A stretch of 64,000 nucleotides of DNA from an uncultured Clostridia bacterium (GTDB taxonomy: Bacteria; Bacillota; Clostridia; Oscillospirales; Acutalibacteraceae): NCBI GenBank assembly GCA_944384845.1, contig CALWUZ010000212.1:567-64566 (forward strand), given 5' to 3'. A model generated the notes under the pieces. The model was not told the DNA's origin. It saw nothing but the letters and a program-made list of their open reading frames with translations, and did no database searches. Positions within the stretch are counted from its first letter, which is position 1. Every line of letters begins with the position of its first letter. Position numbers and translations under genes: made by a program. Shown here piece after piece: positions 221 through 53,199 of the stretch.

Positions 221-240
221 TGATTTAATTATATTAAATT

Positions 241-3659: not shown

Positions 3660-3675
3660 AAATCTCGCCTCAGTA

Positions 3676-6210
3676 TTAATTATTTTCTCTGTAATATCCC
3701 ACAGCGGGAACTGTAAAACCGTCTGAAATATAATCGGAATCACCGTAATTCACATAGATAACAGCACCGTTTTCATATTTGACGCGTACAACCTCGTCAG
3801 TCAGATAAACATGCTCGGTAATTGCCCTGTTGTTGAGACCGTTTAACGCTTCCCGTATCATTTTATAATTTAGTTGTATATCTTCTTTCAAATAGTCATA
3901 ATTAGTATTATAAATATAAGAATAATCAGTTTCAAAAAGTCTGTCAAAGGCATTCGCCGTCAGTATGTAATGCAGTCCGCTTCCGGTTTCAATAAGCTTA
4001 AGTACCGTTCTCTGAATATTGCCTGAACTGTTTACACATTCGGTGACATAATCTACATATCCGTGAAGCACAATCTGTACAAAAGGAATATCTCTGTAAT
4101 ATGCGTTGATCTCCGAAGAGTATGCCGGAAGGTTATTTATCAGATCCATATAAGGCAGTGCGTAGAGATTGCCGGCATCGCCCAATACCGGTATGTCTTC
4201 TTTAGCAATAGAATTGAGAATACCGGTTATTTCATTTAATGAGTAGCTTCTTCCGAAAAAATCACCGTCTGAATAATCGCCGTAAAGCATAGACGTAAGA
4301 CCCGAAACACCGATTCCGCTCTCAGACAATTCTTCATTTGAAATATAGGACTTATAAAGCTTACTGTAAGACTTAGGTGATACAAGACTGAACTTTGATT
4401 CTGTGTAGCTGTTTGTCTGAGCATCTGGCAGCATCAGCTTTACTATGGAATTATTTATGTTTCTCACTGCCTGCGAGGTTATGGAAAAACCATCACCGAA
4501 AAAGTTTTCGGTTACGGTAAAATTAATATCTAAATATGATTTTATATTATTTTCTTTTAATGTCCCAAGGAGTGTCCTGTAAGCTTTTTCTCCTCCGGCT
4601 GCTTCGCTGAAATTCAAAGCGCCCAGCTTTTGTCGGTTAATGCCCTTTTTATTCCAGCCGGTAAGCAATACGCTGATATTTTCTCCCCCGGCAAGCTTAC
4701 ACAACTCTTCGGAAATTTTTCCTGCCTCATTGAAGGTGGTAACTGCGTATTCACGGTTGACAGGTATAAAGCCCAAAGCTGTTGTATCATAATTAATAAC
4801 ATTTACAAACTCTGCCAACAGCAAAGCTTCCTCTCCATGAACTTTTTTGCTCAGAACCCCCTCTTCAATAAGGCGGTTTCTGTAATACACCGCCATCTCA
4901 GAATAAGCGCTGCTCTCCTGCAAATCACTGAAAAGCACATACTCTGCACAGAATATTTCATCCGCCACGTCTGCGGCAAACAGCTGAACCGGGTTTGAAG
5001 AGCTCATGGCATAGCTGTAAGTATCAATAAGATTAAAAGAGGGTGAAACAGCAGACGCAGCCGCATTTCGGTCAACACTTATTTCCGCCTGCTGATTTCC
5101 TGCTCCTAAAATGCAAAGATAGCCTCCGTAATTTTTGTACTGTCCGAATACCGGCAATGTACATTGCTCCGACATCTCCTCAAGACGTTCGGTTAAAGAA
5201 GCATTGCTGCCGTAAACAGGAAGACGCAGCTCAAGCTCATCCTCCTCATTTCCGGCTTTTATCAAGGCTCCGCATCCCGACGGGATAACAAAATATCCTT
5301 CGTCCTGACCCGCAATGCTGTCAAAATAAGGCAAAATATTAATTTCAGTCAACGGATAATCGCTGTAATATTGACAGTCCGCAGAGTTCACCTGCGCCTT
5401 AAAGCCATTATCTGTCAGAGTATAGCTTACCGAGACCCTGAAAGTCTGCGGATTTTCCCTTTCGGTTGTTGTATTCCCGTTGTCAAGGTTTCTGTCCTCT
5501 GATGTATATCCTGCGCTTCTGAATATTTCATCAGTACGTTTTTTCATAAGATTGGTAGACATATTGGTGAGAATGTAAAGATCTTCATTTCTGAGTCTTG
5601 GATATGTATTCAAAAGATACGTGCGTTCCTCGTCTTCATACTCATTCAATACATACAATCTGTATCTGCGCAATATATATTCTGCGTCTTCCTCATTCAT
5701 TCGGGCAAGAAATTTTTCCAATCTCTCTCTGGAAATAACATCAGGATAAACATAATCTGCCGACATTTCTCCGAAGCCGTATTCAACTTTTACTCCGTCC
5801 TTCAAAGTGAAAACCCTTACCTGGTTTTTATCAACGCTGCTTTCACTGCTGTAAAGAGTTACCTTAGTGGAATTATCGCTGAAATAACTGATAATCAATG
5901 CCGACGAGTACTTACTGTTTCCTGTATTATTGTCCGGTACGGATTTCCACACCCTTCCGGTGGGCTTATGTAAAATAATCGGATTTGCCTGTCCGTCCAG
6001 CAATAAAGAAAAATTTTCATTTTCCGCAGCTATATAACTGTCACTGCCTATAACAAGCTCCGTAATGTCTGTATCTGCCTGTGTGAAAGCAATATCCCCG
6101 CTGCTCATTCCGTAATTTACCGCCTCATCTCCGGAAAGAATAAAGGTCAAACCTGTAAACCCCAAGACAACTGCCAGAACGGTACACCAAGCTATTATTT
6201 TTCTTTTCAT
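3676..6210 (-). CDS. Exported ~840-aa protein of unknown function, N-terminal membrane anchor/signal (DUF5696-like); cassette copy A
   Basis: GGAGGG RBS at 6216-6221. N-terminus MKRKIIAWCTVLAVVLGFTGLTFIL is hydrophobic. It is a clear paralog of ORF 46694-49198, with shared blocks such as LPV(F/Y)G, (L/V)(L/R)L(T/S)GW, (I/V)PF(V/L)..VL(H/K)GYV(D/N)Y and G(S/A)GL(H/Y)(Y/F)ILTA. The DUF5696 label is from memory of database annotations of genes next to YIP1-family genes. Confidence 0.6.
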   Translation of the reverse strand: MKRKIIAWCTVLAVVLGFTGLTFILSGDEAVNYGMSSGDIAFTQADTDITELVIGSDSYIAAENENFSLLLDGQANPIILHKPTGRVWKSVPDNNTGNSKYSSALIISYFSDNSTKVTLYSSESSVDKNQVRVFTLKDGVKVEYGFGEMSADYVYPDVISRERLEKFLARMNEEDAEYILRRYRLYVLNEYEDEERTYLLNTYPRLRNEDLYILTNMSTNLMKKRTDEIFRSAGYTSEDRNLDNGNTTTERENPQTFRVSVSYTLTDNGFKAQVNSADCQYYSDYPLTEINILPYFDSIAGQDEGYFVIPSGCGALIKAGNEEDELELRLPVYGSNASLTERLEEMSEQCTLPVFGQYKNYGGYLCILGAGNQQAEISVDRNAAASAVSPSFNLIDTYSYAMSSSNPVQLFAADVADEIFCAEYVLFSDLQESSAYSEMAVYYRNRLIEEGVLSKKVHGEEALLLAEFVNVINYDTTALGFIPVNREYAVTTFNEAGKISEELCKLAGGENISVLLTGWNKKGINRQKLGALNFSEAAGGEKAYRTLLGTLKENNIKSYLDINFTVTENFFGDGFSITSQAVRNINNSIVKLMLPDAQTNSYTESKFSLVSPKSYSKLYKSYISNEELSESGIGVSGLTSMLYGDYSDGDFFGRSYSLNEITGILNSIAKEDIPVLGDAGNLYALPYMDLINNLPAYSSEINAYYRDIPFVQIVLHGYVDYVTECVNSSGNIQRTVLKLIETGSGLHYILTANAFDRLFETDYSYIYNTNYDYLKEDIQLNYKMIREALNGLNNRAITEHVYLTDEVVRVKYENGAVIYVNYGDSDYISDGFTVPAVGYYRENN

Positions 6211-6227
6211 TTGATACCCTCCTTTTC

Positions 6228-8339
6228 TTAAAGTCTTAGGGTTATTTCTTCAATCAGCAATCCTATAAAGTCTGTCATTTGCTGAACAATCGTGATGCAA
6301 AGCAAAAACAAAAAAACTATAATGCCGATTGCAACTATAATAGCTATGATTGTGGCCAATGTTCTTAACGCCAAATACTGATGTACAACCAGTGTGCCGA
6401 CAAACAGCAAGAAGCCTATCCAGATATAAAAAATCATTCTGATTATGGTATATAGCGCTGCTTCGTCAAGTGAAAGACAATTACTGAGAATTATAAGAAG
6501 CGGAGTGCCTATTATAAACGGAGTAAGCGCATAACAGGAATACATATAAATATATTTGAACGTGCCCGAACCGTTCATAAGCGATGTTACCGACCAATTC
6601 GCAGCACACCACAGTCCAAAAGGCAAAAGAACAGTTAGAACGCCCTGTATCATTATATTAAAGCCCGCATCATTACTTCCTGCAAAAAGATAGCCTGTGG
6701 AAAACGTGCTTATAAGGTTAAGAAGAGTCACCGTTACAAGAATCGCCGTAGCAGACGAGAGCCTGCCTTTGCCCTCGAACTGCATATCCCAAAATCCATC
6801 AAACGGATGGCGCATTATGTAAAAACCGTATTTTATTCCTTCCCACAACGGCTTTTTCTTTTTAAATCCTTTGTTAAGTCTTTTACTATATATTTTTTTA
6901 GCGATAATCAGTACCAAAGCTGTAATAACAATCACACAAATAACAATTCCTGTTATTTCAGTCCCTATTATCTGCCTGTATTCTTTCAGGGCCTTTGAAT
7001 AGTTTTCAGTATCATCAGCCATTTTGAACCAATTCATAGCTTCGATATAGTTGCCGCTGCGAAGCTCGTTTTTACCCAGACCGACAAACGCAAGATTATT
7101 GCCGGAATGCATTTCAAGAAGATTTCTCCAGCACTGGCTTGAAGAAGTATAATCACCCGAAATCTGAGCGTCTATCGCCTTATTGATCAGCATTGTATAT
7201 TCTGTAGGACTGAATATTTTTACAGCTGCGTTACCGTAATCTGAAACCACAATGTTGTCTCTCCACCAACAAACAGCAGTCGGTTTCAGGAACTCATCCT
7301 TTTTATTTCCTAAATTTCCGAAAATATAAAGTAATTCTCCGGATTTATCATATGTAAACACTCTGCCTCTTGTACTGTCAAGAACACAATAAATACCGTT
7401 TTCCTTTACATCCACATCAATAAATCTTGATGCGTTTCCAGAATCTGCTATCCAGGAAACGGTTTCAATAAGATCACCTGCAGGCGGCATGCTGCCGGTA
7501 CGTTTGAGAACGTCAATATTTTTAGGATTAAGTCTTCGCACCGGAGCAAGCGTATTGTCGCTTCCGCCGCTCTTAATGTAACTCAGCATTTCAGAATCAG
7601 TATTTGTAGCAACAGTTGTATAAATAAATCCCTCTGAGTCGATGTCCAAAGCACTGTATTCGGTAGGAACAAACAAAAGCATTCGCGATAACTGCGCTTT
7701 AGTGGAAATTGACCGCCAAAAAAGCTCCGAAAGACTTGGTACAACCGGCACCGAACCGAAAAAGCCCAGAAAATTGCCTTCCATATCCATTTGATAGATA
7801 CCGTTTGTTTCATTATTTACAATTATATACAGACGCTCCGCATCGTCTACCACCAATTTATGCGGAAAAAACTCCACCGTAGAAAGCGTCTTTTCCGCAG
7901 GCGGAGCTCCTGTTTCATTAATATATTCTCCGCTGGCGTCAAGCTTTACTATTCTTTTGTTTCCTGTATCCGCAACATAAATAAAACCATCATCGCTTAT
8001 AAAAAAGCCTTCAGGCATATTAAATCCCAGGCTTTCCCCCAAAACGGAAACAAGCTTATATTCTTTATCTACAACAAAAATTTTACCCTGGGTTTTCTCA
8101 AGAATATACAGCATATCCCCATACACATTTATATCCGCAATATCATTTAAACTTTCGATTCCAAGAGATTGACTATCAACAGAAGCAATCATTTCATAAG
8201 AAGCAGGAGCCATTATCGGCTCTTGTTGATTATTATATGTGTAATTTTTATCAAAGGAAATGCTTGCCGCAGACGCATTTAAAACAGCTACGGCAGCAAT
8301 GACGCTGACAGAGGTAAACAGCTTTATGATTTTTTTCAT
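6228..8339 (-). CDS. Signal peptide + NHL-repeat beta-propeller + single TM + C-terminal Yip1-type 5-TM domain; cassette copy A
   Basis: Signal peptide ...VLNASAAS. NHL-type repeats, e.g. FNMPEGFFISDDGFIYVADTGNKRIVKLDASGEY. TM at aa 461-481, then basic loop KKIYSKRLNKGFKKKK, then HPFDGFWDMQFEGKG and five hydrophobic spans (Yip1 pattern). The GGAGG RBS overlaps the stop of the upstream permease. Confidence 0.75.
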   Translation of the reverse strand: MKKIIKLFTSVSVIAAVAVLNASAASISFDKNYTYNNQQEPIMAPASYEMIASVDSQSLGIESLNDIADINVYGDMLYILEKTQGKIFVVDKEYKLVSVLGESLGFNMPEGFFISDDGFIYVADTGNKRIVKLDASGEYINETGAPPAEKTLSTVEFFPHKLVVDDAERLYIIVNNETNGIYQMDMEGNFLGFFGSVPVVPSLSELFWRSISTKAQLSRMLLFVPTEYSALDIDSEGFIYTTVATNTDSEMLSYIKSGGSDNTLAPVRRLNPKNIDVLKRTGSMPPAGDLIETVSWIADSGNASRFIDVDVKENGIYCVLDSTRGRVFTYDKSGELLYIFGNLGNKKDEFLKPTAVCWWRDNIVVSDYGNAAVKIFSPTEYTMLINKAIDAQISGDYTSSSQCWRNLLEMHSGNNLAFVGLGKNELRSGNYIEAMNWFKMADDTENYSKALKEYRQIIGTEITGIVICVIVITALVLIIAKKIYSKRLNKGFKKKKPLWEGIKYGFYIMRHPFDGFWDMQFEGKGRLSSATAILVTVTLLNLISTFSTGYLFAGSNDAGFNIMIQGVLTVLLPFGLWCAANWSVTSLMNGSGTFKYIYMYSCYALTPFIIGTPLLIILSNCLSLDEAALYTIIRMIFYIWIGFLLFVGTLVVHQYLALRTLATIIAIIVAIGIIVFLFLLCITIVQQMTDFIGLLIEEITLRL

Positions 8340-8354
8340 ACCGACCTGTACCTC

Positions 8355-9212
8355 CTAATCCTTAATGCCCGAAGAGGACATTGTCTGCATTACATTTGAC
8401 TGTGAAAAAAGAAATACAGTAATCGGGGGCAGTATCATAATAAGTGAAACTGCCGCCGAAACACCGGTTCTTGCAATACCGCCGGACACTATATTTGACA
8501 GGGCCGTCGGAAGAGTCTTAAGATTTTCATCAAAAATAAACACGCCGCCTGTGGTCCCCCATATTCCCTGAAATGAAAATATAAGCAGCGTAAGCCATGC
8601 GGGCTTGACCATAGGCATTACTATCTGCATAAAAATACGGTTTTCTCCCGCCCCGTCTAAAGCTGCCGCTTCAAGCAAAGTATCCGGAACCATCTGATCC
8701 ATAAACTGTTTCATCAGAAAAAGCCCTATCGATGAAGGCAGCAGCGGCAGTATAATTGCCCAAAGAGTATTTATAAGGTGGAGTTTGGTCATAATTATAT
8801 AGTTCGGAATAGCTGTGACAACAGAAGAAAAAAGCAATGACAATACAACTAACTGAAATAATAAATTTCTTCCTTTAAAGTTCTTTTTTGAAAGTATGTA
8901 CGCCGCCATTGATGAAATAATAATATTCCCCGCCGTACCTATAACAGTTATAAATACGGAATTCAGCACATAGCGCGAAAAAGGAAGCCAGGAATCTCCC
9001 AAAAGCGATGACAAATTAATAAAATTATCAAAAGTGGGATTCTGCGGAAACAACTTAGGAGGAAATATAAACAGCTCGCTTAAAGGCTTAAATGCGTTTG
9101 AAAAAATAAATACCATAGGAAGAACCATAAACAGAGCTATTAAAAGCAAAAACAGAAATACTACAATATTACCGGCAACACTTCTGTATGACTTAGAGCC
9201 GATTTTACTCAT
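8355..9212 (-). CDS. Carbohydrate ABC transporter permease (MalG/LplC-type); cassette copy A
   Basis: Six hydrophobic spans and the EAA-loop motif LLEAAALDGAGENRIFMQIVMP. By eye it is about half identical to ORF 51290-52159. Confidence 0.85.
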   Translation of the reverse strand: MSKIGSKSYRSVAGNIVVFLFLLLIALFMVLPMVFIFSNAFKPLSELFIFPPKLFPQNPTFDNFINLSSLLGDSWLPFSRYVLNSVFITVIGTAGNIIISSMAAYILSKKNFKGRNLLFQLVVLSLLFSSVVTAIPNYIIMTKLHLINTLWAIILPLLPSSIGLFLMKQFMDQMVPDTLLEAAALDGAGENRIFMQIVMPMVKPAWLTLLIFSFQGIWGTTGGVFIFDENLKTLPTALSNIVSGGIARTGVSAAVSLIMILPPITVFLFSQSNVMQTMSSSGIKD

Positions 9213-9229
9213 TTCTTAAATTATCCTCC

Positions 9230-10123
9230 TTATGTTCCCACATTTTTAAGCAAACGCTTTATCATTTGATTGCAAAGCAGCATCGCCGCAAAAAGAATTG
9301 TAGCTACCGCGCAGGCATCTCCGAACTCGAATTTAATATCGGCAAAATCGGTCATATGATTTACAAGCGTATGCACTGCATAATCAGTACTGGGATTTCC
9401 GCATAAAGCCGCACCTACAGCGCCCACGGTAAACGCCCCTGTTATTGACATCACCGAGCCAAACAGCAGCTGCGGTTTCATCTGCGGTATCGTTATATAC
9501 CATAACTCCTGCCAGCGATTACGCACGCCGTCAATAGCTCCCGCTTCATAAAGCGACTGATCAACACCCTGTAAGCCTGCAACGAAGGATAAAAACTGTG
9601 TTCCCATACTGGTCCACATCGTAACTATTATTACGGCAGTCATCATATATTCGGTATCGGTAAGAAACTGTATCGGCGAACTGATAATACCGGTATTAAG
9701 AAGAAAAGCGTTTATATAGCCGAGCTGATCGCCGCTGAAGAGAAGCTGCCATATCATGTATGCATTGCCCGATATCGACGGTGCATAAATCAAAAATACC
9801 ATTGCCGTGCGAAGTCCGCGGTTAAGCTCATTAAGTACCCATGCGAGCATAAGAGCGCCTATATAGCTGAACGGACCGACCACCAAAGCCATCGTGACGG
9901 TATTTACGACTGCCTGTGTAAAAATTTCATCGTTAAAAAATAAATCGCTATAATTTTCAAACCCCACAAACTGCGGCGACTGCAGAAGATTATAATCCGT
10001 AAAGCTTAAAAACATCGCCATTAATACGGGTAAAATTACAAATAAAGCGAACAGAGAAAAAAACGGCAGCAGATAAATAATACAAATTTTATTTTTCCTC
10101 AGATTTTTTGAAATTCTATTCAT
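9230..10123 (-). CDS. Carbohydrate ABC transporter permease (MalF/LplB-type); cassette copy A
   Basis: Polytopic, with EAA loop LYEAGAIDGVRNRWQELWYITIPQM. Its ATG (10121-10123) shares one base with the TGA (10123-10125) of the upstream SBP gene. Confidence 0.85.
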   Translation of the reverse strand: MNRISKNLRKNKICIIYLLPFFSLFALFVILPVLMAMFLSFTDYNLLQSPQFVGFENYSDLFFNDEIFTQAVVNTVTMALVVGPFSYIGALMLAWVLNELNRGLRTAMVFLIYAPSISGNAYMIWQLLFSGDQLGYINAFLLNTGIISSPIQFLTDTEYMMTAVIIVTMWTSMGTQFLSFVAGLQGVDQSLYEAGAIDGVRNRWQELWYITIPQMKPQLLFGSVMSITGAFTVGAVGAALCGNPSTDYAVHTLVNHMTDFADIKFEFGDACAVATILFAAMLLCNQMIKRLLKNVGT

Positions 10124-12930
10124 CAGCTATCTGTCTCCAATCCGAATTCCCTTCGTTTCTTGGTAAGCTCTGCATTTATTGTCTGTGTATATTCATTTAC
10201 GGTCTCCCGAACATCGGCATCCTCATTGATAATTTTACGGAAAATATTGTTTATATGACGATTAAGAAAATAACCGCCGGGGACCTGTTCGATAGACATA
10301 GCATTTTCCCGCTGAACATTAAGCGTGCTAAGCGCCGCCGCAGACCAGGAGAGTCTGCCGAAAGCCTCTATATTGGCAGTTGCATATCTTCCGGGAATAC
10401 CCTGCTTATTCTCAATTGCCGCAGCATAGGCGTACTGAGCATCCGCGCCGGTAAACCATTTTACAAAGCTCCATGCCTGTTCCGGATTTTCGGTGGTATT
10501 CATTATCATTGCAGCAGTAGTAGTGCTCAGGGAAATATGTCTCACGCTTCCGTCCTCACGCCTTGTTCCCGGAACCGGATACATACTCCACAGTCCGCTT
10601 ATTTCAGGCGCCGACACCTCAAGTGTGTTAAATGTACTGAAATCCGCGATTCCTATCGGCATATCACCGCTTCGGAAGCGGTTAACAAAATTATAAGACA
10701 TAAGCAGTGAATAGTCAGAATATAGCTCTGTCCATTTTGTAAACGCTTCTATTGCCTCCTCCGTATTAATATCAACCGATCTTCCGTTATCCTTATAGAT
10801 GTTGCTTTGATTTTGAAACAGCAGTAACGCAAAACCATTGACCGTACCGCTGTCCGGATAGGCAAATTCCATATTATTCTGTTGCAAAACCGTAAGGCAG
10901 TTATATACGTCTTCCCAAGTTTCCGGAACTTCAAGTCCGATTTCGGTCAAGATATCATCTCTCACAAACATTACGTCGCATACCTGAGTGAGAGGTATAC
11001 CATATACGCCGCCGTCATACGTATACGGAATCATAGCCTGCGGATAAAATCTTGCGGCGACCTCGCTGTAATCCGGAAATTCCGAAAGGTCAAGAAGCGC
11101 TCCGCGGGCGGCAAAGTTCATAGGCATCCCCTCGTCGGCAAACAAGTATACATCCGGCTCTATACCGGCAACAGTTGCCTGCAAAATTCCTCCTGAAACC
11201 AATTTAAGGCTGACGCCTATATTACTTTCCGGAGTAAAATCATTGTCTGTCAGTTCTTTTATTATCTGATACTGGTCCCTGCCCAGAGTCAGCCAAACCT
11301 CTATCGCCTCACCGTCTCCGTAAACACTGCCTATCATTCCGTAATCCTCGGCAAATGATTTAAAGAAAAGCTGCGTTCCAAATAAAATGTTTTTAAAAAA
11401 GCCGGCTTCCTCTTTTACTGTATCAGCGTTTTTGGGCAGCACCTGAATGCAGTCAACGGTGAGCGGCTGCGAGGTACAGCTTTGAATCCAGTCGCTTAGT
11501 CCGGTCAGGTTACTGTTGAAAGTACTCAGATACTGCGGCAATGTTTCGGGGTACTCCAAAAACTCATTTAACTGTCTGATTATTTCATCAAGCTTTGCAG
11601 TTCCCTCACCGCTGCCGCCGTTTTGTATAAGAAGCCAATCGAAAAGCTCCTGCAAAACTTGTTTCTGCTCTTTAAAAATTTCTAATACATCAGGAAGATT
11701 TTTTTCTATCTGATAATCCCTGTATTTATCAGGAGTAGCACCTGTCACCATAATAATTCTGCGGTATGCCTCGTTAAGTCTGAATAAGGATTTCTGTGCA
11801 ACATTAAGCGCTTTCGCCTGCTCTCCAAGAGTCACCTCAAGCGTAATAGTATGATCGCCTTCCTCTAAAAAATAGAGATACGGATTTCCGTCCGCATCTG
11901 CAAGGCGAATCACCTGCCATCCGCTGCCGTACGGAAATTTAACTGATTCCATTTCACTGAAAGGCACTTCGCCGTCAATTAAAAGCCTGCGGTAGCTTGA
12001 AAGTCCGCTTGTAAAATTGTTTTTGAATCTGAACGCCAATGTATAATAACCGCTTTTTTCAGCGTGGAATTTCCACGAAACAGATTGTCCTTCAGCACTC
12101 CATCCGGAGCCGCCTAAACTGTTCCAAACCTGCAGGCCTTCAAAAACAGGATTGGTTATAGCTGAAGTTCGGTCGCAAAGCTCCGTAATCGAAGCGTTGG
12201 TGCGTATATATGGCTTTTCGGCCTCAATGGTAATAGCTTCAGCGTTATTTTCCGAACCTTCTGTATAATTTTTGCTTATCTCATTATAAGAAGCTTTCGG
12301 TTTATAGCAATAAAGCATTACCGATTTGAGTTCTATGCTCCCCTTTGCAGCGGTAATAGTTATATTATTTTCACCCTCGGCAAAATAAAAGCACAGCGGC
12401 TCTGTATGCAAACCCGAATTATCAGTAAGTACGGCTGACTGCCATTCATCGCTTTCATTCAGAGAAACAGTATACTCATTGCCGCGTTTGTCCTTTTCGG
12501 TATCTGCAGAAAGCCATGAACGCTTTAAAGTAAACTCCGCCGCCTCTCTGAAAGGACGCTCCCCGTTAATATCTATAGAGCAGGTACCGTCCCCGTCATT
12601 ATCTGACACTATCTTATATATCATTTTAACAGATGCCAGGCACTCATTTATATTTACGGCAAACGTAAAACTATCACCTTCGCTGATGACAACATTTTGC
12701 TCCGCAGTTATATCATCGCTTATATAAGCAACATCCTTATATCTTTCTATATAAGCGTCATATTCTACAGCAGAAGACGTACCTGCCATACGCTCGATTG
12801 CATCATTCAAATCCGGAAAAGCATCATAAGCTTCTTTATTTTTCTGAAAAACAGCAAAAACGGTTATTGCTATAACTGCAGCCAATACGGCGGCTGTCAC
12901 CGCTATAATTCTCTTTTTGTAATTAGCCAT
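10123..12930 (-). CDS. Giant (935 aa) membrane-anchored extracellular solute-binding protein with two N-terminal beta-sandwich (CBM-like) domains; cassette copy A
   Basis: GGAGG RBS and N-terminal TM IIAVTAAVLAAVIAITVFAVF. Two ~150-aa beta-rich segments (e.g. ITIEAEKPY...GWSAEGQSVSWKFHAEKSGYYTLAFRF...GDHTITLEV). The C-terminal ~420 aa has a family-1 SBP pattern (EVWLTLGRDQYQ..., ...GIPLTQ..., ...PVPG...). Paralog of 53200-55992. Confidence 0.75.
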   Translation of the reverse strand: MANYKKRIIAVTAAVLAAVIAITVFAVFQKNKEAYDAFPDLNDAIERMAGTSSAVEYDAYIERYKDVAYISDDITAEQNVVISEGDSFTFAVNINECLASVKMIYKIVSDNDGDGTCSIDINGERPFREAAEFTLKRSWLSADTEKDKRGNEYTVSLNESDEWQSAVLTDNSGLHTEPLCFYFAEGENNITITAAKGSIELKSVMLYCYKPKASYNEISKNYTEGSENNAEAITIEAEKPYIRTNASITELCDRTSAITNPVFEGLQVWNSLGGSGWSAEGQSVSWKFHAEKSGYYTLAFRFKNNFTSGLSSYRRLLIDGEVPFSEMESVKFPYGSGWQVIRLADADGNPYLYFLEEGDHTITLEVTLGEQAKALNVAQKSLFRLNEAYRRIIMVTGATPDKYRDYQIEKNLPDVLEIFKEQKQVLQELFDWLLIQNGGSGEGTAKLDEIIRQLNEFLEYPETLPQYLSTFNSNLTGLSDWIQSCTSQPLTVDCIQVLPKNADTVKEEAGFFKNILFGTQLFFKSFAEDYGMIGSVYGDGEAIEVWLTLGRDQYQIIKELTDNDFTPESNIGVSLKLVSGGILQATVAGIEPDVYLFADEGMPMNFAARGALLDLSEFPDYSEVAARFYPQAMIPYTYDGGVYGIPLTQVCDVMFVRDDILTEIGLEVPETWEDVYNCLTVLQQNNMEFAYPDSGTVNGFALLLFQNQSNIYKDNGRSVDINTEEAIEAFTKWTELYSDYSLLMSYNFVNRFRSGDMPIGIADFSTFNTLEVSAPEISGLWSMYPVPGTRREDGSVRHISLSTTTAAMIMNTTENPEQAWSFVKWFTGADAQYAYAAAIENKQGIPGRYATANIEAFGRLSWSAAALSTLNVQRENAMSIEQVPGGYFLNRHINNIFRKIINEDADVRETVNEYTQTINAELTKKRREFGLETDS

Positions 12931-12939
12931 ACTTCCTCC

Positions 12940-13836
12940 TTATCCCACAAGTCCTGTCGTTTCTATGCTTTCAACAAGAAAACGTTTTGTAAACATAAAA
13001 AGAAGGAGCAAAGGCAGTATATACATTACAACACTTGTGTTTTTAAGAATCGCCCGGTAATAATAATCATTTTTGAGGTCTGTCAATTCAAACTGCATAT
13101 CTATAGTCGAAAGCTTTGTCCAGATAAACTCCGTATTAGGAAAAAATATTTCGGAATATGTAGGGTCTGTCCATTTCCATACAAATGCGAACATAAAGCA
13201 TGTAAAGAATACCGCCACCGCTCCCGGCAGCATTATTTTTGCGAAAACCTTAAACGTACCTGCTCCGTCGACCGCCGCAGCTTCCTCAAGCTCTTTCGGA
13301 TATCCTTTGAAAGACTGCCGCATAATATATATGATAAGTCCGTCCTTTAAACCCACTGCGGTAGCTGACAGTAAAAACATAGGAAGCGGGGTGGTAAGCA
13401 AATTCCAGTCAAACGGTCCGTAGCTTTGAAACTGAAAATACAGCGGAGCGAAATATATGCTGTACGGTACAAGCAGCGTAAGAATCACACAGCCGAACAA
13501 CAAATTACGAAAAGGAAATTTAAAACGCGCAAAGCCGTAGGCAACAAGAAGGCAGGATATCATTTCTATTAAACAAAGCGAAATATTAAGAGCAAGCGAT
13601 ATACCGATTGTTTTCCAATAATCAAGAAATATTGAAGCATCAACATAATTTTGAAGCGTAGGACTTTTCGGGATAAAACGTACAGCAGTATCATATATAT
13701 CTGAGCTTTGCATAAAGGATATAAGCAAGGTAATTATTAAAGGATAAATAATAATAAAGCTCAGACCGACCAATATCAAATAACGGAAAAAACCGCCTAA
13801 TATCCATATTGTTTTCTTTTTTGTTTCTAATTTCAT
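12940..13836 (-). CDS. Carbohydrate ABC transporter permease (MalG-type)
   Basis: Polytopic, with EAA loop LEEAAAVDGAGTFKVFAKIMLP. Paralog of 44840-45778. Confidence 0.85.
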   Translation of the reverse strand: MKLETKKKTIWILGGFFRYLILVGLSFIIIYPLIITLLISFMQSSDIYDTAVRFIPKSPTLQNYVDASIFLDYWKTIGISLALNISLCLIEMISCLLVAYGFARFKFPFRNLLFGCVILTLLVPYSIYFAPLYFQFQSYGPFDWNLLTTPLPMFLLSATAVGLKDGLIIYIMRQSFKGYPKELEEAAAVDGAGTFKVFAKIMLPGAVAVFFTCFMFAFVWKWTDPTYSEIFFPNTEFIWTKLSTIDMQFELTDLKNDYYYRAILKNTSVVMYILPLLLLFMFTKRFLVESIETTGLVG

Positions 13837-13849
13837 CTGTATTCCCTCT

Positions 13850-14764
13850 TTAGTTGTAATGCTTCATCAGTTGTTTTATTAATAATACGAAAAAGCATAA
13901 AACAGCAATTATTATAAAAAAGTATGTCCAAGCAAGAGATGCGGCATATCCGAACTGAAAGCTGGAAAAGTTATAGTCAGTGATAGTTTGCATAACGGGA
14001 TTTACATTATTGGAAAAAGCGTCTATCACAGTGTAAACAACATTTACAAGCGTTTGCGGCAGCACCATCGGAAAAGTTATTTTCCAAAAGCTTTCCCAGG
14101 CGGTTGCCCCCTCGATTTGCGAAGCCTCATAAAGAGACCTCGGTATTGCTTTTAAAGCAATTAAAAAAACAAGTATCTGTATCCCGGAAGAATTTATAAC
14201 CTCTAATATATTTGTAATAGCATATATTATGTACTCTATAAAACCGTTTGGCAGACCCATTCGCATGAAGAGGTCACCAACCAGTGAAGCATTGAAAAGA
14301 GAAGTGTCCTCGCCTGTCGCGGAAGCGGCATTAATTATTGTCCGCCGGATTATATCGTCGCTGATCAAATTCGGCATAATACCTGCGGAAACAATAACAG
14401 GAATAAAAAAAATAATCTGAAATACCGGCTGTCCCGGAAATTTACCGTTTAAAAAAACAGCCACAAGCATGCTGAAAATAAGAATTATAGGAACATTGAC
14501 CGTCATACTTGAAAGCGAATCCAGCAAAAGCTTACGGAAATCAGTATCAACCGTAAAAGCACGCTTATAATTTTCAATTCCCATAAATTCAAGCGAGACT
14601 TTTCCGTCAAATTTTAAATCATTGAAGCTGTAAATAAAAGACTGCATCATAGGGAAGAAAATAAATGCAAAAAAGCCGATTATGAAGGGCAGCACAAAAA
14701 TAAGACCCTTCAGTTCCCTTTTTCTTACAAGCCGACTTTGTTTCCAAAAATCAAAAAAATTCAT
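13850..14764 (-). CDS. Carbohydrate ABC transporter permease (MalF-type)
   Basis: Polytopic, with EAA loop LYEASQIEGATAWESFWKITFPM. Paralog of 45796-46689. Confidence 0.85.
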   Translation of the reverse strand: MNFFDFWKQSRLVRKRELKGLIFVLPFIIGFFAFIFFPMMQSFIYSFNDLKFDGKVSLEFMGIENYKRAFTVDTDFRKLLLDSLSSMTVNVPIILIFSMLVAVFLNGKFPGQPVFQIIFFIPVIVSAGIMPNLISDDIIRRTIINAASATGEDTSLFNASLVGDLFMRMGLPNGFIEYIIYAITNILEVINSSGIQILVFLIALKAIPRSLYEASQIEGATAWESFWKITFPMVLPQTLVNVVYTVIDAFSNNVNPVMQTITDYNFSSFQFGYAASLAWTYFFIIIAVLCFFVLLIKQLMKHYN

Positions 14765-14787
14765 TCATTTCTTCCTTTCCGTCATAT

Positions 14788-14815: not shown

Positions 14816-14824
14816 ATTAAACAA

Positions 14825-15868: not shown

Positions 15869-15889
15869 TAATATCACCTTTTAAAATAA

Positions 15890-17154: not shown

Positions 17155-18648
17155 TTATTTCCAGAAATCCTCTATCTGAGCATTAATCTGCTGACTGATA
17201 CTTGAAAGAGCGGACGCTGCGGTAGTCTCGCCGTAAGCTACTTTCTTTATATTTTCTGTAACGGTACCCATATAATAGCCGTAGTCAAAAACATATTTTC
17301 CGGTCTGAAGATTGGTAAGATACTTTTCAATTGTAGCTTTGACGCTGGGATCAGGCATAGTGTCATAAAGAGTAGCACTGACATTAAGCACACTTTCATT
17401 TCTGTATTCGCCCAAAATATCCCAGAACAGGGCGACATCGTTGGGATTCTCCACGCCTTTTGGAATAGATACTGAAGTCACAAGACTTTCAACCAGGTCG
17501 TTGCTGCTGTCGGGACCGTGAGGAAACAGGCACATACCTATTTCAAAGTCTGCATTGTTACAAACCGTTCCGAACTCAAAGTAATCTATTACGGTCATTG
17601 CAGCCTTTCCCGAATAGAAAACCTGACGGCCGGAATCCCAGCCGGAAACTGAGCTGTCATACAAATATCCTTTATTTGAAACCCAGCTTGCAAGCTGATT
17701 AAGCGCGTTTGTAGCCTTGGAATTGTCAAGGGAATATGTAAAATTAGCTGTATCTCCCTGACGTGTAAGCACTTTTGCACCGTTTGCCCAAAGCATCTGT
17801 CTGCCGAACTGTTCTATAGAATACATCGGTACAAGACCATACCGCGTGATATTATTCCCCTCTACAGCCGCCGCCTTGCTCATAATTTCGGTAAGCTTTG
17901 CCCAGGTAAGCTTACCGTTTTTCTGAAGGGTATAAAGATCCTCCCAGTTATTCCTTTCAAACATAGTTTTGTTATACATCAAAACGCTTCTGATCTGCGA
18001 GCTGCGGGAAATGGCGTAAACATGACCGTCAAGCGTATTCTCCGCCGTACATGCCTTATCCCAGCAATCGTCGGAAAGATCAAAATTAGAAAGCGTGTCA
18101 AGAGCGATAAGATAACCCTTTCTTGCGAGATTGAGCGGCGGCTGTTCCGCTTTTGTAACAAAAAGATCGGCTATTGGCGCACCCGAAAGAATAGAAGTAT
18201 AAAGCGCTTTATAATCGCTCATTTTGCGCTCAACAAATTTACAGTTGAGCATTTGCTCTACTTCTCTTATAATTTTACCGTTCTCACTGTTGCGGTCTGT
18301 CGGATCCCAATATGCAATATAGGTTATTGTCCTGCCCTTTAAATCCTTTATTCTGCCCGGGTCTATTTCATTTGTCTGACCGGTAGTAGTCGAACCGATA
18401 TTTACCGTATCTGAATTTCCGCTCTGACCGCTGCCGCCGGAACTTCCGCCGGAGCCGCCGGAACTCCCGCCCGAACCGCTGTTTGAAGCTCCGTCACCAG
18501 TGTTGTCCGTCGGTGCATCTATATATACATATTCAATATCTTCACTGCTTGAAGATGCGGTATCAGAATTGCTTCTGCAGCCCGAAAACACAGCTGAAAG
18601 TGACAGAGCAAGACACAAACAAATAACTTTGTTTAATTTTTTGTTCAT
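17155..18648 (-). CDS. ABC transporter solute-binding lipoprotein (carbohydrate family)
   Basis: Lipobox AVFSGC, Gly/Ser linker, ~420-aa SBP-like body. Paralog of 43281-44786. The GGAGGAA RBS overlaps the upstream stop. Confidence 0.8.
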   Translation of the reverse strand: MNKKLNKVICLCLALSLSAVFSGCRSNSDTASSSSEDIEYVYIDAPTDNTGDGASNSGSGGSSGGSGGSSGGSGQSGNSDTVNIGSTTTGQTNEIDPGRIKDLKGRTITYIAYWDPTDRNSENGKIIREVEQMLNCKFVERKMSDYKALYTSILSGAPIADLFVTKAEQPPLNLARKGYLIALDTLSNFDLSDDCWDKACTAENTLDGHVYAISRSSQIRSVLMYNKTMFERNNWEDLYTLQKNGKLTWAKLTEIMSKAAAVEGNNITRYGLVPMYSIEQFGRQMLWANGAKVLTRQGDTANFTYSLDNSKATNALNQLASWVSNKGYLYDSSVSGWDSGRQVFYSGKAAMTVIDYFEFGTVCNNADFEIGMCLFPHGPDSSNDLVESLVTSVSIPKGVENPNDVALFWDILGEYRNESVLNVSATLYDTMPDPSVKATIEKYLTNLQTGKYVFDYGYYMGTVTENIKKVAYGETTAASALSSISQQINAQIEDFWK

Positions 18649-43280: not shown

Positions 43281-44786
43281 CTATTTTATCGAACCGGTAT
43301 ACTTAATATCCTTTGTCCTGTCGTTTACATTTGTTTGGAAAGTGTTTTGATATGTGTCCACAAAAGTTCCCGGCGTCATTATGCCTTCAAAAAGCTGTCC
43401 GATAGCCGCGGCATACGACGTTGTATTATTGCCTAACTCAACTTTTGTAGTGCCGTCCCACACCTGTTTGACAGTTCCGTCATGCAAGGTTTTAAACATA
43501 TTGTAAGCTTCTTTATCTTTAAAAAATCTTATCCATTCATCTCTGAACTGATCGTCTCTGCTGTAACCGTCCGGCATTTTATAAAGCTCGTCAAGCAAAA
43601 GCAGAAGATCGGAAGTCATATTGGCATAAGCGGAAGGTACCACATAGCTGTATTCGTCAGTAAGCATTGAAACATATTCTTTGGCGTTCGGGCCCATCGG
43701 AATATACGCTATTCCCCACTCATCCTTCAAAGAGGTGTAGGCACGGCTGATGCCGTCGTGACCAGTAAAATACATTGCTATTTTCTTTGCCGCAAAATCC
43801 TGAGCAAGCTGTGTCCAGGTCATTTGCCCGTAATTAAAGGAAGCCACTTTATTTACATTTACCCAATCATAAATTTGCTGCAAAGCCGCGCGCGTACCCT
43901 CTGAGGAAAGCTGTACCTTATATTTTCCGTCGGAGCCGGGTATACAGATATTACTGTTGTTGCTCAGCGCAAGCGCTGCTGCCGAAGAGGTCTCAAGTCC
44001 AATACCGTATTGCGTCACCTCACCGGAAGAACTGCGGACAGTCAGCTTTTCAGCTATTTCGGTCATTTTGTCCCAGGTCCATTGCTTCTTTGAAATCAGG
44101 TCATATATATCGTAGCCCGCCCTGTCGGTCATTGTCTTATTAAAAATGATAACCGCTGGTACGCGGGCAAATCCATACCCCGCTGTATATTGCTTTCCGT
44201 TAATATTGTTAAGCTGAACATTAAATTTGTTGAATATATCAGAGGTCATATCAATTCCGGTTTTTTTCATAGCGGAATTAAAGTCCGCAATATAACCGTT
44301 GGAGGCGTAATTATAAACCGTAGCCGAACTTATCTGATAAAGCTGTCCCTCCGGTTTTACGCCCGCCAGAACTTCCTGTGCGAGGGTAGTGTTCCATTTC
44401 TTTTCAACAATTTTTACGTTAAATTCTTTTTCGACGCGGTCTACATTGTCATTCCAATTATCCCACGCGGTATACTGACCGCTGGGATATGCTCCCCATT
44501 CTCTCAGGATTGTTATCGTTTTACCGCCGAAATCAAGCTTTTGTTTCGCTTCAGAGGTGGTCTTATTGTCCGAATCCGAGCCGGCGGAAGTGTTTTGACT
44601 GCCGGCTTGCCCGTTCCCGTTTGAAGAGCTGCCGCTGCTTCCGTCGCCGCCCACTATTTCCTCTGTTTCAATCACACGCTGTATAACAGAATAATCTGAG
44701 CTGTCGTCGCCGCTGCTCTGGCAGCCCGAAAAGCATATGACAATAATACCGGAAATTATAAAGCTTATGATACGTTTGAAATTCAA
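43281..44786 (-). CDS. ABC transporter solute-binding lipoprotein (carbohydrate family)
   Basis: TTG start with AAGGAG 9 nt upstream. Lipobox VICFSGC, Gly/Ser linker. Paralog of 17155-18648. Confidence 0.8.
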   Translation of the reverse strand: MNFKRIISFIISGIIVICFSGCQSSGDDSSDYSVIQRVIETEEIVGGDGSSGSSSNGNGQAGSQNTSAGSDSDNKTTSEAKQKLDFGGKTITILREWGAYPSGQYTAWDNWNDNVDRVEKEFNVKIVEKKWNTTLAQEVLAGVKPEGQLYQISSATVYNYASNGYIADFNSAMKKTGIDMTSDIFNKFNVQLNNINGKQYTAGYGFARVPAVIIFNKTMTDRAGYDIYDLISKKQWTWDKMTEIAEKLTVRSSSGEVTQYGIGLETSSAAALALSNNSNICIPGSDGKYKVQLSSEGTRAALQQIYDWVNVNKVASFNYGQMTWTQLAQDFAAKKIAMYFTGHDGISRAYTSLKDEWGIAYIPMGPNAKEYVSMLTDEYSYVVPSAYANMTSDLLLLLDELYKMPDGYSRDDQFRDEWIRFFKDKEAYNMFKTLHDGTVKQVWDGTTKVELGNNTTSYAAAIGQLFEGIMTPGTFVDTYQNTFQTNVNDRTKDIKYTGSIK

Positions 44787-53092: not shown

Positions 53093-53199
53093 AAATAATC
53101 TCCATTCTGCCGCTGAAAAAAGCAGCATAAACAGGTACGGAAAAACATATAAAGCGCAATTTATAATAAAAATTTATATTATTGCTAATCCGGAGCTTT

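Follow-up and report, generated by a model that had tools for sequence, protein, structure and literature searches.

Sugar ABC importers are the main route of glycan-fragment uptake in Gram-positive gut and soil bacteria and are thought to require just a binding protein, two permeases and an ATPase. In Bacteroidota, SusCD utilisomes are outer-membrane complexes of a transporter, surface glycan-binding proteins and a surface glycosidase, and in the SLC3-SLC7 heteromeric amino-acid transporters a single-pass protein, 4F2hc or rBAT, carries a GH13-like ectodomain. Two further systems bear on single components of the locus described here: the GH129 glycosidases, represented by the 3,6-anhydro-D-galactosidase ZgGH129 (PDB 5OPQ/8RZK) and the alpha-N-acetylgalactosaminidase NagBb (PDB 5WZN) and related to GH101, and YknW, a Bacillus membrane protein of the Yip1 family reported to modulate assembly of the YknXYZ ABC transporter (PMC4887032).

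The locus lies in a 64,000-nucleotide stretch (the window) of contig CALWUZ010000212.1 from an uncultured Clostridia bacterium. It resembles CUT1 importers (MalEFG and MsmEFG, with their shared MsmX/MsmK ATPase) in its two MalF/MalG-type permeases, with the EAA motif confirmed in the PB members, in a binding-protein (SBP) domain of the oligosaccharide-binding class and, like those of Gram-positive polysaccharide-utilisation loci, in operons mostly without an ATPase gene and with glycosidase and AraC or two-component genes nearby. Unlike CUT1 importers, (i) its giant binding protein (gSBP) is twice the normal size, with two beta-sandwiches, a helical stalk and a membrane-helix rather than lipid anchor, (ii) it brings two permease pairs together, and (iii) its NHL/Yip1 and DUF5696 proteins are conserved membrane proteins without counterpart in described importers. 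An earlier sequence-only reading knew of no function shown for this gene combination, and our full-text literature searches agree: they found no functional work on the module, and DUF5696 and PF18952 returned no match at all.

A seven-gene module present twice in the window

The sequence-only reading described a tightly packed five-gene cassette that recurs at 46.7-56.0 kb. Five minus-strand ORFs indeed lie at exactly 3676-12930, with the Pfam domains that had been called; they are separated by gaps of -1, 17, 15 and 17 nt (the PA start overlaps the gSBP stop), with GGAGG-type ribosome-binding sites at the junctions, and a paralogous set, 27-57% identical to the first part by part, is found at 46694-55992. 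The five genes are conserved together, but the unit they belong to comprises seven: gSBP, the inner permeases PA and PB, the NHL/Yip1 protein, the DUF5696 protein and a co-inherited second, outer permease pair, PA' and PB', located at 12940-14764 in copy 1 and 44840-46689 in copy 2. The gap is 9 nt between PB' and gSBP in unit 1 and 4 nt between DUF5696 and PA' in unit 2. A small lipoprotein SBP frequently accompanies the module. The features of the two units are as follows.

3676..6210, minus strand: DUF5696 protein, unit 1, 844 aa (Pfam DUF5696)
6228..8339, minus strand: NHL-TPR-Yip1 membrane protein, unit 1, 703 aa (Pfam NHL and Yip1)
8355..9212, minus strand: inner permease PB (MalG/UgpE type), unit 1 (Pfam BPD_transp_1)
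9230..10123, minus strand: inner permease PA (MalF/UgpA type), unit 1 (Pfam BPD_transp_1)
10123..12930, minus strand: gSBP, unit 1, 935 aa (Pfam SBP_bac_1/8)
12940..13836, minus strand: outer permease PB' (MalG type), unit 1 (Pfam BPD_transp_1; beyond the span first described)
13850..14764, minus strand: outer permease PA' (MalF/UgpA type), unit 1 (Pfam BPD_transp_1; beyond the span first described)
17155..18648, minus strand: small lipoprotein SBP, unit 1, 497 aa (Pfam SBP_bac_1; lipobox FSGC)
43281..44786, minus strand: small lipoprotein SBP, unit 2, 501 aa (homology to the 497-aa SBP of unit 1; lipobox FSGC)
44840..45778, minus strand: outer permease PB', unit 2 (Pfam BPD_transp_1)
45796..46689, minus strand: outer permease PA', unit 2 (Pfam BPD_transp_1)
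46694..49198, minus strand: DUF5696 lipoprotein, unit 2 (Pfam DUF5696; likely start at Met25 of ORF 46694-49270)
49210..51273, minus strand: NHL-TPR-Yip1 protein, unit 2, 687 aa (Pfam NHL and Yip1)
51290..52159, minus strand: inner permease PB, unit 2 (Pfam)
52181..53128, minus strand: inner permease PA, unit 2 (Pfam)
53200..55992, minus strand: gSBP, unit 2, 930 aa (Pfam SBP_bac_1/8)

The copies differ most in DUF5696 (27% identity by BLASTP, 29% by local alignment) and NHL/Yip1 (31% over the full length), followed by gSBP (38% across 836 residues) and the inner permeases (55% for PA, 57% for PB); judged from these identities, their divergence is ancient. By their predicted topology, the accessory proteins all face outward from the cytoplasmic membrane and are tethered to it. 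In copy 2, the DUF5696 protein has a lipobox (LSGC) after Met25, and its start is most likely at 49198, which leaves a gap of 11 nt instead of a 61-nt overlap. Within positions 1-20000 of the window, which hold unit 1, promoter- and terminator-like sites did not rise above shuffled sequence.

Components of the module

All eight permeases of the two units score above the BPD_transp_1 cutoff, and the EAA motif (EAA..DGA) is present in all four MalG-type members, as EAAALDGAG at residue 181 in PB and EAAAVDGAG at residue 185 in PB' of unit 1, and at residue 201 in PB' of unit 2. Together with the sugar-class binding protein, they bear out the sugar ABC importer core of the sequence-only reading, with transport as a predicted function; the NCBIfam matches of PA of unit 1 (GlcT, PotB and UgpA) are each below cutoff. 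By sequence comparison, the inner and outer pairs form separate orthologous groups, the outer one co-inherited with the cassette. PA' of unit 1 finds its best cross-class matches in the permeases encoded after DUF5696 at other loci (221 bits, versus 94 bits for the inner class), PB' of unit 1 is likewise orthologous to the downstream class (226 versus 87 bits), and PA' of unit 2 is a member of that class. The outer pair follows DUF5696 in 55 of 66 loci and instead precedes gSBP in eight cassette-1-type loci and in unit 1 of the window. The inner transporter is the most conserved part of the module: the median identity of inner PA across loci is 50%, and in the same loci the inner permeases share 47-57% and the SBP domain of gSBP 45%, versus 34-38% for the outer permeases, 27-29% for DUF5696 and 27% for the small SBPs. 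Such conservation (47-57% against 27% for DUF5696) is odd for the importer of a variable glycan.

The Pfam SBP_bac_1/8 match in gSBP of unit 1 is confined to residues ~540-850, and the AF2 model (pLDDT 88, pTM 0.84) accounts for the remainder. In the model, an N-terminal membrane helix is followed by two CBM-like beta-sandwiches (74-207 and 233-367), which agree with the extra domains that had been read from the sequence, by a helical bundle forming a stalk (371-486) and by an oligosaccharide-type SBP domain (542-935). The closest PDB relatives, by sequence and by fold, are oligosaccharide-binding proteins, with 9xf5, 5ysf and MalE as best Foldseek matches. Among the homologues, 117 of 119 have the N-terminal hydrophobic segment and just 3 a lipobox, some carry a CBM_35, and the SBP domain contains many invariant Trp, Arg and Asp residues. 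The 497-aa lipoprotein SBP of unit 1, separated from the outer permease pair by two GH16 genes, is probably the binding protein of that pair; in unit 2, the outer pair is followed by a 501-aa protein without any Pfam match that shares 25% identity (E 5e-14) with the 497-aa SBP.

The NHL-TPR-Yip1 protein matches both of its Pfam families above cutoff in unit 1 (NHL, E 2.5e-12 and 46.6 bits; Yip1, E 3.2e-12 and 47.1 bits) and in unit 2 (E 1.6e-20 and 72.5 bits; E 2e-15 and 57.5 bits), the cutoffs being 20 bits for NHL and 28.6 bits (gathering) for Yip1 (PF04893). The 703-aa protein is predicted to consist of a signal peptide, an extracellular six-bladed NHL propeller (~60-380), a TPR stretch (~394-450, from PDB sequence matches to consensus TPRs), a membrane helix (462-480) and a five-helix Yip1 domain (507-690); it contains seven hydrophobic segments, five of them within residues 527-682 of the Yip1 part. 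The fusion of propeller and Yip1 domain that had been described holds for both window copies and for 34 of 67 loci, but in the other 33 the two are separate genes. In locus L085 the inner PB is fused in frame to the NHL protein at the proper position of the cassette (P0276/P0277), an arrangement restricted to one lineage. PDB sequence matches of the NHL domain include the PknD sensor, TRIM2/3/71 and the designed Pizza propellers, and conservation across 42 homologues falls on the D-x-x-N-x-R motifs that are structural in NHL repeats. Some databases name the split NHL protein SMP-30/gluconolactonase; we rejected this identity, as no window protein matches SGL at E <=0.01 and the SGL matches of homologues are faint or weak only. 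By domain and gene context the module recalls YknWXYZ, in that a Firmicute encodes a polytopic Yip1-domain protein together with an ABC transporter. However, YknW has neither NHL propeller nor TPR, and YknYZ, a MacB-type exporter, works with a membrane-fusion protein, whereas the module has type I importers with binding proteins. A four-component exporter of the YknWXYZ type was also rejected here, since the neighbours are BPD_transp_1 permeases and SBPs and no MacB or membrane-fusion domains were seen.

The sequence-only reading found no assignable motif in the 844-aa protein while giving it a DUF5696-like label. The label proved right, with Pfam DUF5696 (PF18952) matches of E 2e-129 and 433 bits in copy 1 and E 3e-153 and 512 bits in copy 2 against a gathering cutoff of 25.6 bits; the lack of a motif did not stand, as both a family and a GH129-like fold were found. 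Copy 1 is built of an N-terminal membrane anchor, a beta-sandwich, a (beta/alpha)8 barrel and a C-terminal beta domain (AF2 model, pLDDT 89, pTM 0.85). Foldseek aligns the model with ZgGH129 (5opq/8rzk) at E 4e-29 and a target-normalised TM of 0.70 and with NagBb at E 2e-22, the range over GH129 structures being 0.70-0.73. The DUF5696 profile retrieves GH129 among PDB sequences at E 3.3e-10, hhalign gives a probability of 99.8% (E 2e-28), and a ZgGH129-like protein scores above the Pfam DUF5696 cutoff. On these structure, profile and profile-profile comparisons, DUF5696 is a distant, membrane-anchored homologue of GH129, which makes the module less mysterious than first thought. The three-domain order of beta-sandwich, barrel and beta domain is that of GH129, but the identity is just 9-13% (Foldseek) or 18% (hhalign alignment), and DUF5696 differs in an insertion of ~100 residues (157-250), in its membrane anchor and in being encoded with ABC permeases and NHL/Yip1 (L069 and L080, where the gene stands alone, excepted). 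The Pfam GH129 model (PF11308) has no match to window proteins even at E <=10.

The catalytic residues of GH129 appear poorly retained. In the hhalign alignment, the column of the nucleophile (the Asp of GLEAD, D486 in ZgGH129) holds Gly in copy 1, Asn in copy 2 and Asp/Glu in 29 of 114 sequences, and the putative acid/base column holds Asp, Asn and Asp/Glu in 55 of 114, respectively. Local confidence is low for both, at 2-5 of 9 across the catalytic half of the barrel, which HMMER does not align at all. D486 was mapped to GLEAD by residue counting in a relative 90% identical over a 200-residue query fragment. As neither column is conserved, DUF5696 may not hydrolyse anything. No carboxylate is invariant in the 114 DUF5696 sequences, the best being D645 (83% Asp) and E741 (82% Glu), which are well conserved together with N681, Y683, Q712 and H716. 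A single N-terminal anchor is present in 164 of 178 homologues, and the gene abuts or overlaps that of PA' in most loci and lies away from the outer pair in the cassette-1-type loci.

Conservation and genomic neighbourhood

Synteny was sampled in the 57 genome loci anchored on DUF5696 that offered 7.3 kb or more of upstream sequence, by an automatic test for gSBP-permease-permease-NHL-Yip1 directly upstream of DUF5696 on the same strand. The test was passed by 51 loci, and two more (L024 and L050) fail solely by an ORF-calling artefact, so that the five genes keep an unchanged order in 53 of 57. Among loci reached through anchors other than DUF5696, all three that were anchored on NHL/Yip1 homologues carry the cassette; four such loci (from Paenibacillus, a Halanaerobiaceae-named protein and uncultured bacteria) have DUF5696, NHL, Yip1 and both permease classes. 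In three of the four gSBP is upstream (truncated at the end of the contig in L085), and in L082, where the order is permuted, it lies downstream. The synteny spans Oscillospirales, Lachnospiraceae, Limnochordaceae, Paenibacillus and the source-labelled Halanaerobiaceae protein. The cassette is one conserved unit, as had been argued from its recurrence, rather than a chance neighbourhood. Altogether, the module is conserved in hundreds of gut and soil Firmicutes, with 315 tblastn-confirmed DUF5696 matches among 185,579 species-representative genomes and about 4,000-7,000 DUF5696 sequence clusters in metagenomes; pairwise-identity correlations between its components are moderate (rho 0.22-0.70).

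Like units of polysaccharide-utilisation loci, the module recurs beside very different glycosidase sets: GH16 with GH20, GH5, GH28 with rhamnosidases, GH130 or GH43, depending on the locus. The window operons themselves hold GH16, GH20 and GH5 genes, and around the seven genes of L083 neither a glycosidase nor a second SBP is encoded. Regulators of the AraC family or histidine kinases flank many loci. No MalK/MsmX-type ATPase gene is present in the window, whose sole ABC_tran domain is in an exporter-type fusion (60658-62409); an ABC_tran gene adjoins gSBP, before it, in 3 of the 25 loci examined. Since it is usual in Firmicutes that one ATPase serves several sugar importers, the missing gene does not bar membership of the CUT1 class.

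A proposed capture-and-import model and its alternatives

In the model that we propose, the module would serve single-membrane bacteria as a machine for capturing and importing glycans, with the Yip1 protein holding its parts together. We infer the complex, the direction of transport and the substrates, and put the probability of the model at about one half. The proposed sequence is the following: (i) at the cell surface, a polymer or large oligosaccharide would be bound by gSBP and the DUF5696 ectodomain, with DUF5696 possibly trimming it as well, (ii) the pieces would be handed to the two ABC translocators, both powered by a common MsmX-type ATPase that is mostly encoded elsewhere, and (iii) the NHL-TPR-Yip1 protein would act as a membrane scaffold or assembly factor joining ectodomains and permeases, by analogy with YknW for YknXYZ. 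DUF5696, the small SBP and the outer permeases, which evolve fastest, would probably carry substrate specificity. In its proposed logic the model resembles SusCD, with glycan-binding and glycosidase-like proteins held on a transporter, coupling capture, processing and import, and with duplication within a genome beside different enzyme sets. However, the proteins and the membrane are unrelated, outer membrane, TonB-dependent transporter and SusD are all absent, and the complex of the module is hypothetical. In a stronger and more tentative form, which we consider less likely than not, the seven proteins would make one stable membrane supercomplex, the Yip1-type scaffold with its NHL/TPR ectodomain docking a GH129-derived ectodomain and a CBM-bearing SBP onto two ABC translocators, and the GH129 part would perhaps be a pseudo-enzyme serving as glycan receptor.

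The poor conservation of the GH129 catalytic columns (Asn at both in copy 2), the lack of an invariant carboxylate, the single anchor and the proximity of the DUF5696 and PA' genes would also suit a pseudo-glycosidase acting as ancillary heavy chain of the outer pair, for stability, gating or substrate hand-over. Like 4F2hc and rBAT, DUF5696 crosses the membrane once, exposes a barrel derived from a glycosidase, possibly without the ancestral catalytic residues, and is genetically tied to a transporter; SLC3-SLC7 proteins are eukaryotic and belong to another glycosidase family and another transporter class, and the likeness is an analogy only. We regard such a role as rather unlikely: the alignment is of low confidence precisely in the catalytic half, the conserved D645, E741, N681, Y683, Q712 and H716 could make a rewired active site, the DUF5696 family has a characterised enzyme, ZgGH129, at its margin, and in cassette-1-type loci the gene is apart from the outer pair. 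Improbable, in our view, is that there is no supercomplex and that the operon encodes co-regulated independent parts, namely two ordinary ABC importers, DUF5696 as an ordinary glycosidase of the cell surface whose catalytic Asp has shifted, and an NHL/Yip1 protein that serves another purpose. Polysaccharide-utilisation operons commonly mix transporters and enzymes, as the GH16, GH20 and GH5 genes of the window operons illustrate, and the correlations between components are just moderate; yet the ordinary neighbours, the flanking glycosidases, turn over while the seven genes keep their order across Firmicutes classes, and fusion and fission of NHL and Yip1 as well as the permease-NHL fusion point to physical coupling.

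PknD, a proposed extracellular detector among the closest natural PDB relatives of the NHL domain, and the AraC-family regulators or histidine kinases beside many loci raise the idea of a sensor or regulator, in which the propeller, possibly with DUF5696, would detect extracellular glycan and gate the transporters or signal to those regulators. This is quite improbable, as the protein has no recognisable output domain, its cytoplasmic parts are short loops, and its gene lies within a transporter operon between permease genes, with structural genes as partners. The strong conservation of the inner transporter, the invariant residues of the gSBP SBP domain and the L083 unit without glycosidases could further mean that the inner system of gSBP and PA/PB has the same ligand or partner in every species, be it a shared product, a glycan from the envelope or a protein, and that the variable nutrient is left to the outer system and DUF5696. 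We give this the least credence of all, since many protein contacts could equally cause strong constraint and no candidate ligand fits the beta-glucan, mannan, pectin and amino-sugar contexts alike.

Our study ties a large DUF family to the GH129 glycosidases and raises the possibility that transporters have taken up a glycosidase fold as one of their subunits. The number of genome matches and metagenome clusters suggests that an entire importer class works with three additional components at the surface. If true, the supercomplex would represent a new ABC importer architecture and would give bacterial NHL-Yip1 and DUF5696 proteins their first assigned role. Moreover, as it is duplicated within genomes beside different enzyme sets, the module could mark glycan-utilisation loci in Firmicutes, as SusC/SusD do in Bacteroidota.

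Gene content and surroundings of the two sets

ORF calling recovered the five genes of set 1 exactly where the sequence-only reading had placed them, and Pfam confirmed each domain that had been called there, as follows.

3676-6210, minus strand: DUF5696 protein, 844 aa, membrane-anchored (Pfam E 2e-129)
6228-8339, minus strand: NHL + Yip1 membrane protein (Pfam E 2.5e-12 for NHL and 3.2e-12 for Yip1; TPR at residues 394-450 from PDB sequence matches)
8355-9212 and 9230-10123, minus strand: binding-protein-dependent permeases (Pfam BPD_transp_1), the inner pair
10123-12930, minus strand: giant substrate-binding protein (gSBP), with Pfam SBP domains confined to the C-terminal 400 of 935 residues

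These genes are spaced -1 to 17 nt apart, and their ribosome-binding sites are of the GGAGG type. A scan of window positions 1-20000 found no excess of promoter- or terminator-like sites over shuffled sequence, and thus neither sets nor breaks the operon borders. The recurrence announced at 46.7-56.0 kb was borne out by Pfam, set 2 (46694-55992) holding the identical five families in the identical order, with identities to set 1 of 27-29% for DUF5696, 31% for NHL/Yip1, 38% for gSBP and 55-57% for the permeases. Judged from their sequences, the two sets are old paralogues and not a recent duplication.

Both sets are embedded in long minus-strand glycan-utilisation operons, with AraC-type regulator genes close by. 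Two type I dockerin proteins (21263-25715), one of them with a GH16 domain, head the operon of unit 1, in which set 1 also neighbours a 497-aa lipoprotein SBP, a permease pair and two further laminarinase-like GH16s, one a lipoprotein and the other (14825-15877) without a signal peptide. Downstream lies a cytoplasmic GH20C-like hexosaminidase (1815-3743; likely true start Met29, at 3659), also without a signal peptide. The lack of signal peptides in this enzyme and in the GH16 at 14825-15877 points to a cytoplasmic breakdown of imported oligosaccharides, which would carry beta-glucan-type and HexNAc linkages. Set 2 is followed downstream by a permease pair, then a lipoprotein SBP of 501 aa that is a homologue of the 497-aa SBP, and three GH5 genes similar to TmCel5A and CelH. 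It seems that this organism uses secreted enzymes of the cellulosome type alongside the ABC module.

Next to the small SBP of each unit stands a large secreted protein (863 aa at 18651-21242, with a C-terminal membrane helix as well, and 813 aa at 40829-43270) with no Pfam or NCBIfam match. Both were rejected as members of the module, being without mutual similarity, rare in other loci and not conserved with the unit. Between two AraC-type regulators, at 26047-33271, lies a separate small operon whose products are a GFO/IDH/MocA oxidoreductase, a SIS-domain protein, a GH20-like protein and two proteins without assignment; in L081, a Paenibacillus locus, the unit likewise has GFO/IDH/MocA genes at its flanks. 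No importer-type ATPase gene is encoded within the window, and the ABC protein at 60658-62409 on the plus strand, in which ABC_membrane is fused to ABC_tran, is of exporter type and unrelated to the importer units.

A seven-gene unit conserved in content and order

Relatives of DUF5696 were sought in 185,579 genomes, one per species, which gave 315 tblastn-confirmed matches. An alignment of 30 DUF5696 sequences offered no conserved region for this locus search, and a narrower alignment was used instead. The best 80 loci, from sources including Acutalibacteraceae, Oscillospiraceae, Ruminococcaceae, Lachnospiraceae, Limnochordaceae and Anaerotaenia, were retrieved with flanks of 10 kb, and their ORFs were called, then searched with the window proteins divided by domain. 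A. torta DSM 100431, the source of L042, is a cultivable carrier. Among these best 80, DUF5696 has NHL and Yip1 immediately before it in 67 of 71 loci, as a single gene in 34 and split into two genes (~490 and ~205 aa) in 33, and the whole series gSBP-permease-permease-NHL-Yip1 precedes DUF5696 directly on the same strand in 51 of the 57 loci whose upstream flank measures at least 7.3 kb. Two of the remaining loci (L024 and L050) missed the rule only through an over-long ORF call that masked the adjacency; the real exceptions are L060, with a permuted order, L043, with no recognisable gSBP, and L069 and L080. In these last two, shorter DUF5696 genes of ~750 aa (L069:9416-11707 and L080:9506-11746) stand alone, without NHL/Yip1, gSBP or permeases, and may represent a sub-family working independently.

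The ascertainment bias towards DUF5696 is removed in four further loci reached through other anchors, three of them via NHL/Yip1 homologues and the fourth via a homologue of gSBP.

L081, Paenibacillus, gSBP anchor: SBP-gSBP-perm-perm-NHL-Yip1-DUF5696-perm-perm
L084, P. beijingensis CP011058, a cultivable carrier: order of L081 with NHL and Yip1 fused, then NanE and GH20
L082, from a protein labelled Halanaerobiaceae by its source: permuted version of the unit
L083, uncultured: only the seven genes, surrounded by unrelated ones

The L083 unit (5070-17351) is minimal, gSBP-perm-perm-NHL/TPR/Yip1-DUF5696-perm-perm, with no glycosidase, regulator or second SBP in the 5 kb around it; among the genes next to it are one for a PemK toxin and one for a glycyl-radical enzyme.

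The cassette is thus conserved as a unit in other genomes. The sequence-only reading had counted five genes in it, and their order holds across loci; the full unit comprises seven, including a second, outer permease pair of MalF/MalG type. This pair follows DUF5696 in 55 of the 66 loci with enough downstream sequence (again among the best 80 of 315) and lies instead upstream of gSBP in eight loci of the cassette 1 type. The inner and outer pairs of one locus share only ~24% identity. The first outer permease finds its best match within its own positional class of other loci in 63 of 63 cases and the first inner one in 50 of 55, the remaining five having matched truncated loci of unassignable class. 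The pair at 12940-14764, upstream of the set 1 gSBP, is orthologous to the outer class (205-259 vs 75-101 bits); hence, the window units span 3676-14764 and 44840-55992.

Other components are less constant. A small SBP is not always present; at Pfam thresholds, a third or more of the loci have one adjoining the unit. Most units, both window units included, have no ABC ATPase gene next to the gSBP gene; in three of the 25 loci examined, one immediately precedes it. Elimination identifies these three as L051, L057 and L061 (Oscillospiraceae, Faeciplasma and Ruminococcus MAGs; Pfam ABC_tran), and the ORFs upstream of their gSBPs also match the window ABC protein at 60658-62409.

DUF5696 and the other non-standard parts

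The 844-aa protein had been described from the sequence as having no assignable motif, which did not hold, given its Pfam assignment and its GH129-like fold and profile match. In a confident AlphaFold2 model built from 30 homologues (pLDDT 89, pTM 0.85), a membrane helix at the N-terminus is followed by a beta-sandwich, a (beta/alpha)8 barrel and, at the C-terminus, a beta domain. In Foldseek against the PDB, its top match is the 3,6-anhydro-D-galactosidase ZgGH129 (E 4e-29, target-normalised TM 0.70), with the alpha-N-acetylgalactosaminidase NagBb at E 2e-22 and TM 0.72, and GH101, GH36 and GH31 ranking after the GH129 enzymes. The sequence profile alone reaches ZgGH129 and NagBb (E 3.3e-10 and 6e-6), and hhalign of 114 DUF5696 sequences with seven ZgGH129-like ones, full-length genes taken from marine metagenomes, gave a probability of 99.8% and E 2e-28 over 626 columns. 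One marine metagenome protein (L086:2341-4422), 90% identical to ZgGH129 across a 200-residue query fragment, scores 32.6 bits with Pfam DUF5696 and 21.9 bits with Pfam GH129 (both cutoffs 25.6), so that by Pfam criteria carrageenan-type GH129 enzymes are peripheral DUF5696 members. Together, the fold, profile and hhalign matches argue that DUF5696 is a large sister group of GH129. At 50% identity, it comprises 6,954 clusters with E up to 1e-3, 4,036 of them with E up to 1e-30.

D486 is known as the nucleophile of ZgGH129 from 8RZK, the D486N Michaelis complex, and was assigned by residue counting to the Asp of the invariant GLEAD motif. In the hhalign alignment its column, of low local confidence, holds Gly in copy 1, Asn in copy 2 and Asp/Glu in 29 of 114 sequences; that of the GTEHG Glu, the probable acid/base, in a low-confidence register, holds Asp in copy 1, Asn in copy 2 and Asp/Glu in 55 of 114. 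The best-conserved DUF5696 carboxylates, D645 (LYGDY; 83% Asp) and E741 (IETG; 82% Glu), both fall short of invariant, and HMMER alignment of GH129 sequences onto the DUF5696 profile left the catalytic half of the barrel unaligned. Either the active site is rewired, or many members are glycosidase-derived binding modules.

The extra beta-sandwiches proposed for gSBP are there: its structure model (pLDDT 88, pTM 0.84) starts with a membrane helix and continues through two beta-sandwiches and a long helical bundle to the SBP domain. Foldseek matches of the whole model are confined to the SBP half, the nearest structures being binders of cycloisomalto-, sophoro- and malto-oligosaccharides. We tentatively call the sandwiches CBM35-like on the basis of precomputed Pfam CBM_35 matches in a few homologues and a sub-threshold Golvesin_C match. 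An N-terminal hydrophobic segment is found in 117 of 119 gSBP homologues and a lipobox in only 3 of 119. Anchoring by a membrane helix without a lipobox is unusual among Gram-positive SBPs; the small SBPs of the gSBP-bearing operons are ordinary lipoproteins.

The NHL/Yip1 protein carries a signal peptide, and its propeller and TPR are extracellular; they are accompanied by a single membrane helix, a basic loop on the cytoplasmic side and the five helices of Yip1. Like the other accessory proteins, it faces outward from a membrane tether. The residues conserved in 42 homologues are NHL-repeat structural motifs and several Yip1-domain motifs, with nothing among them suggestive of a catalytic centre. 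A gluconolactonase or other enzymatic reading of the propeller was rejected, with no SGL match and no conserved catalytic-type residues. One lineage shows a single reading frame of 796-799 aa for the inner MalG-type permease and NHL-TPR together, at the normal cassette position (L085:1558-3948), the next gene encoding a separate Yip1 protein. This frame, seen in the P0276 and P0277 protein clusters from two contigs (43,653 and 16,822 bases), may reflect either a genuine fusion or a sequencing error common to both.

Specificity and proposed role of the unit

Median pairwise identity across loci falls from 47-50% for the inner permeases to 36-37% for the outer ones, 35% for gSBP, 33% for Yip1, 31% for NHL and 27% for DUF5696. 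The window copies rank alike, with 45% identity in the gSBP SBP domain and 27% between the small SBPs. The flanking enzymes vary widely (GH16/GH20, GH5, GH28 with rhamnosidases, GH130, GH43, alpha-galactosidase). This gradient and this variety suggest that substrate specificity probably resides in DUF5696, the small SBP and the outer permease pair. Mucin O-glycan, considered as a target from GH129, GH16 and GH20, was dropped, since the GH16s are laminarinase-like and the enzymes differ so widely by locus.

We propose that the seven-gene proteins would act jointly as a machine for glycan capture and import, in which the Yip1 protein would be the scaffold, DUF5696 a substrate-specific receptor or trimming enzyme, and a shared ATPase the source of energy. 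YknW, a Yip1-family protein, modulates the assembly of the YknXYZ ABC transporter (PMC4887032); no other bacterial Yip1 protein whose role is described came up in the literature searched. Alternatively, DUF5696 could be a pseudo-enzyme subunit of the outer transporter, or the inner system, with the best-conserved permeases, could serve a constant ligand. The parts could also be independent and co-regulated; pairwise-identity correlations between components are positive and modest (rho 0.22-0.70), saturated at such divergence, and were discounted as evidence. A sensor role for the NHL-TPR-Yip1 protein is a further candidate.

Full-text searching found no literature on the gene set, and no paper for "DUF5696" or "PF18952". 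Each part falls within a known superfamily, and an ABC sugar importer forms the core. The concrete advances are the link between DUF5696 and GH129 and the definition of the unit as seven genes.
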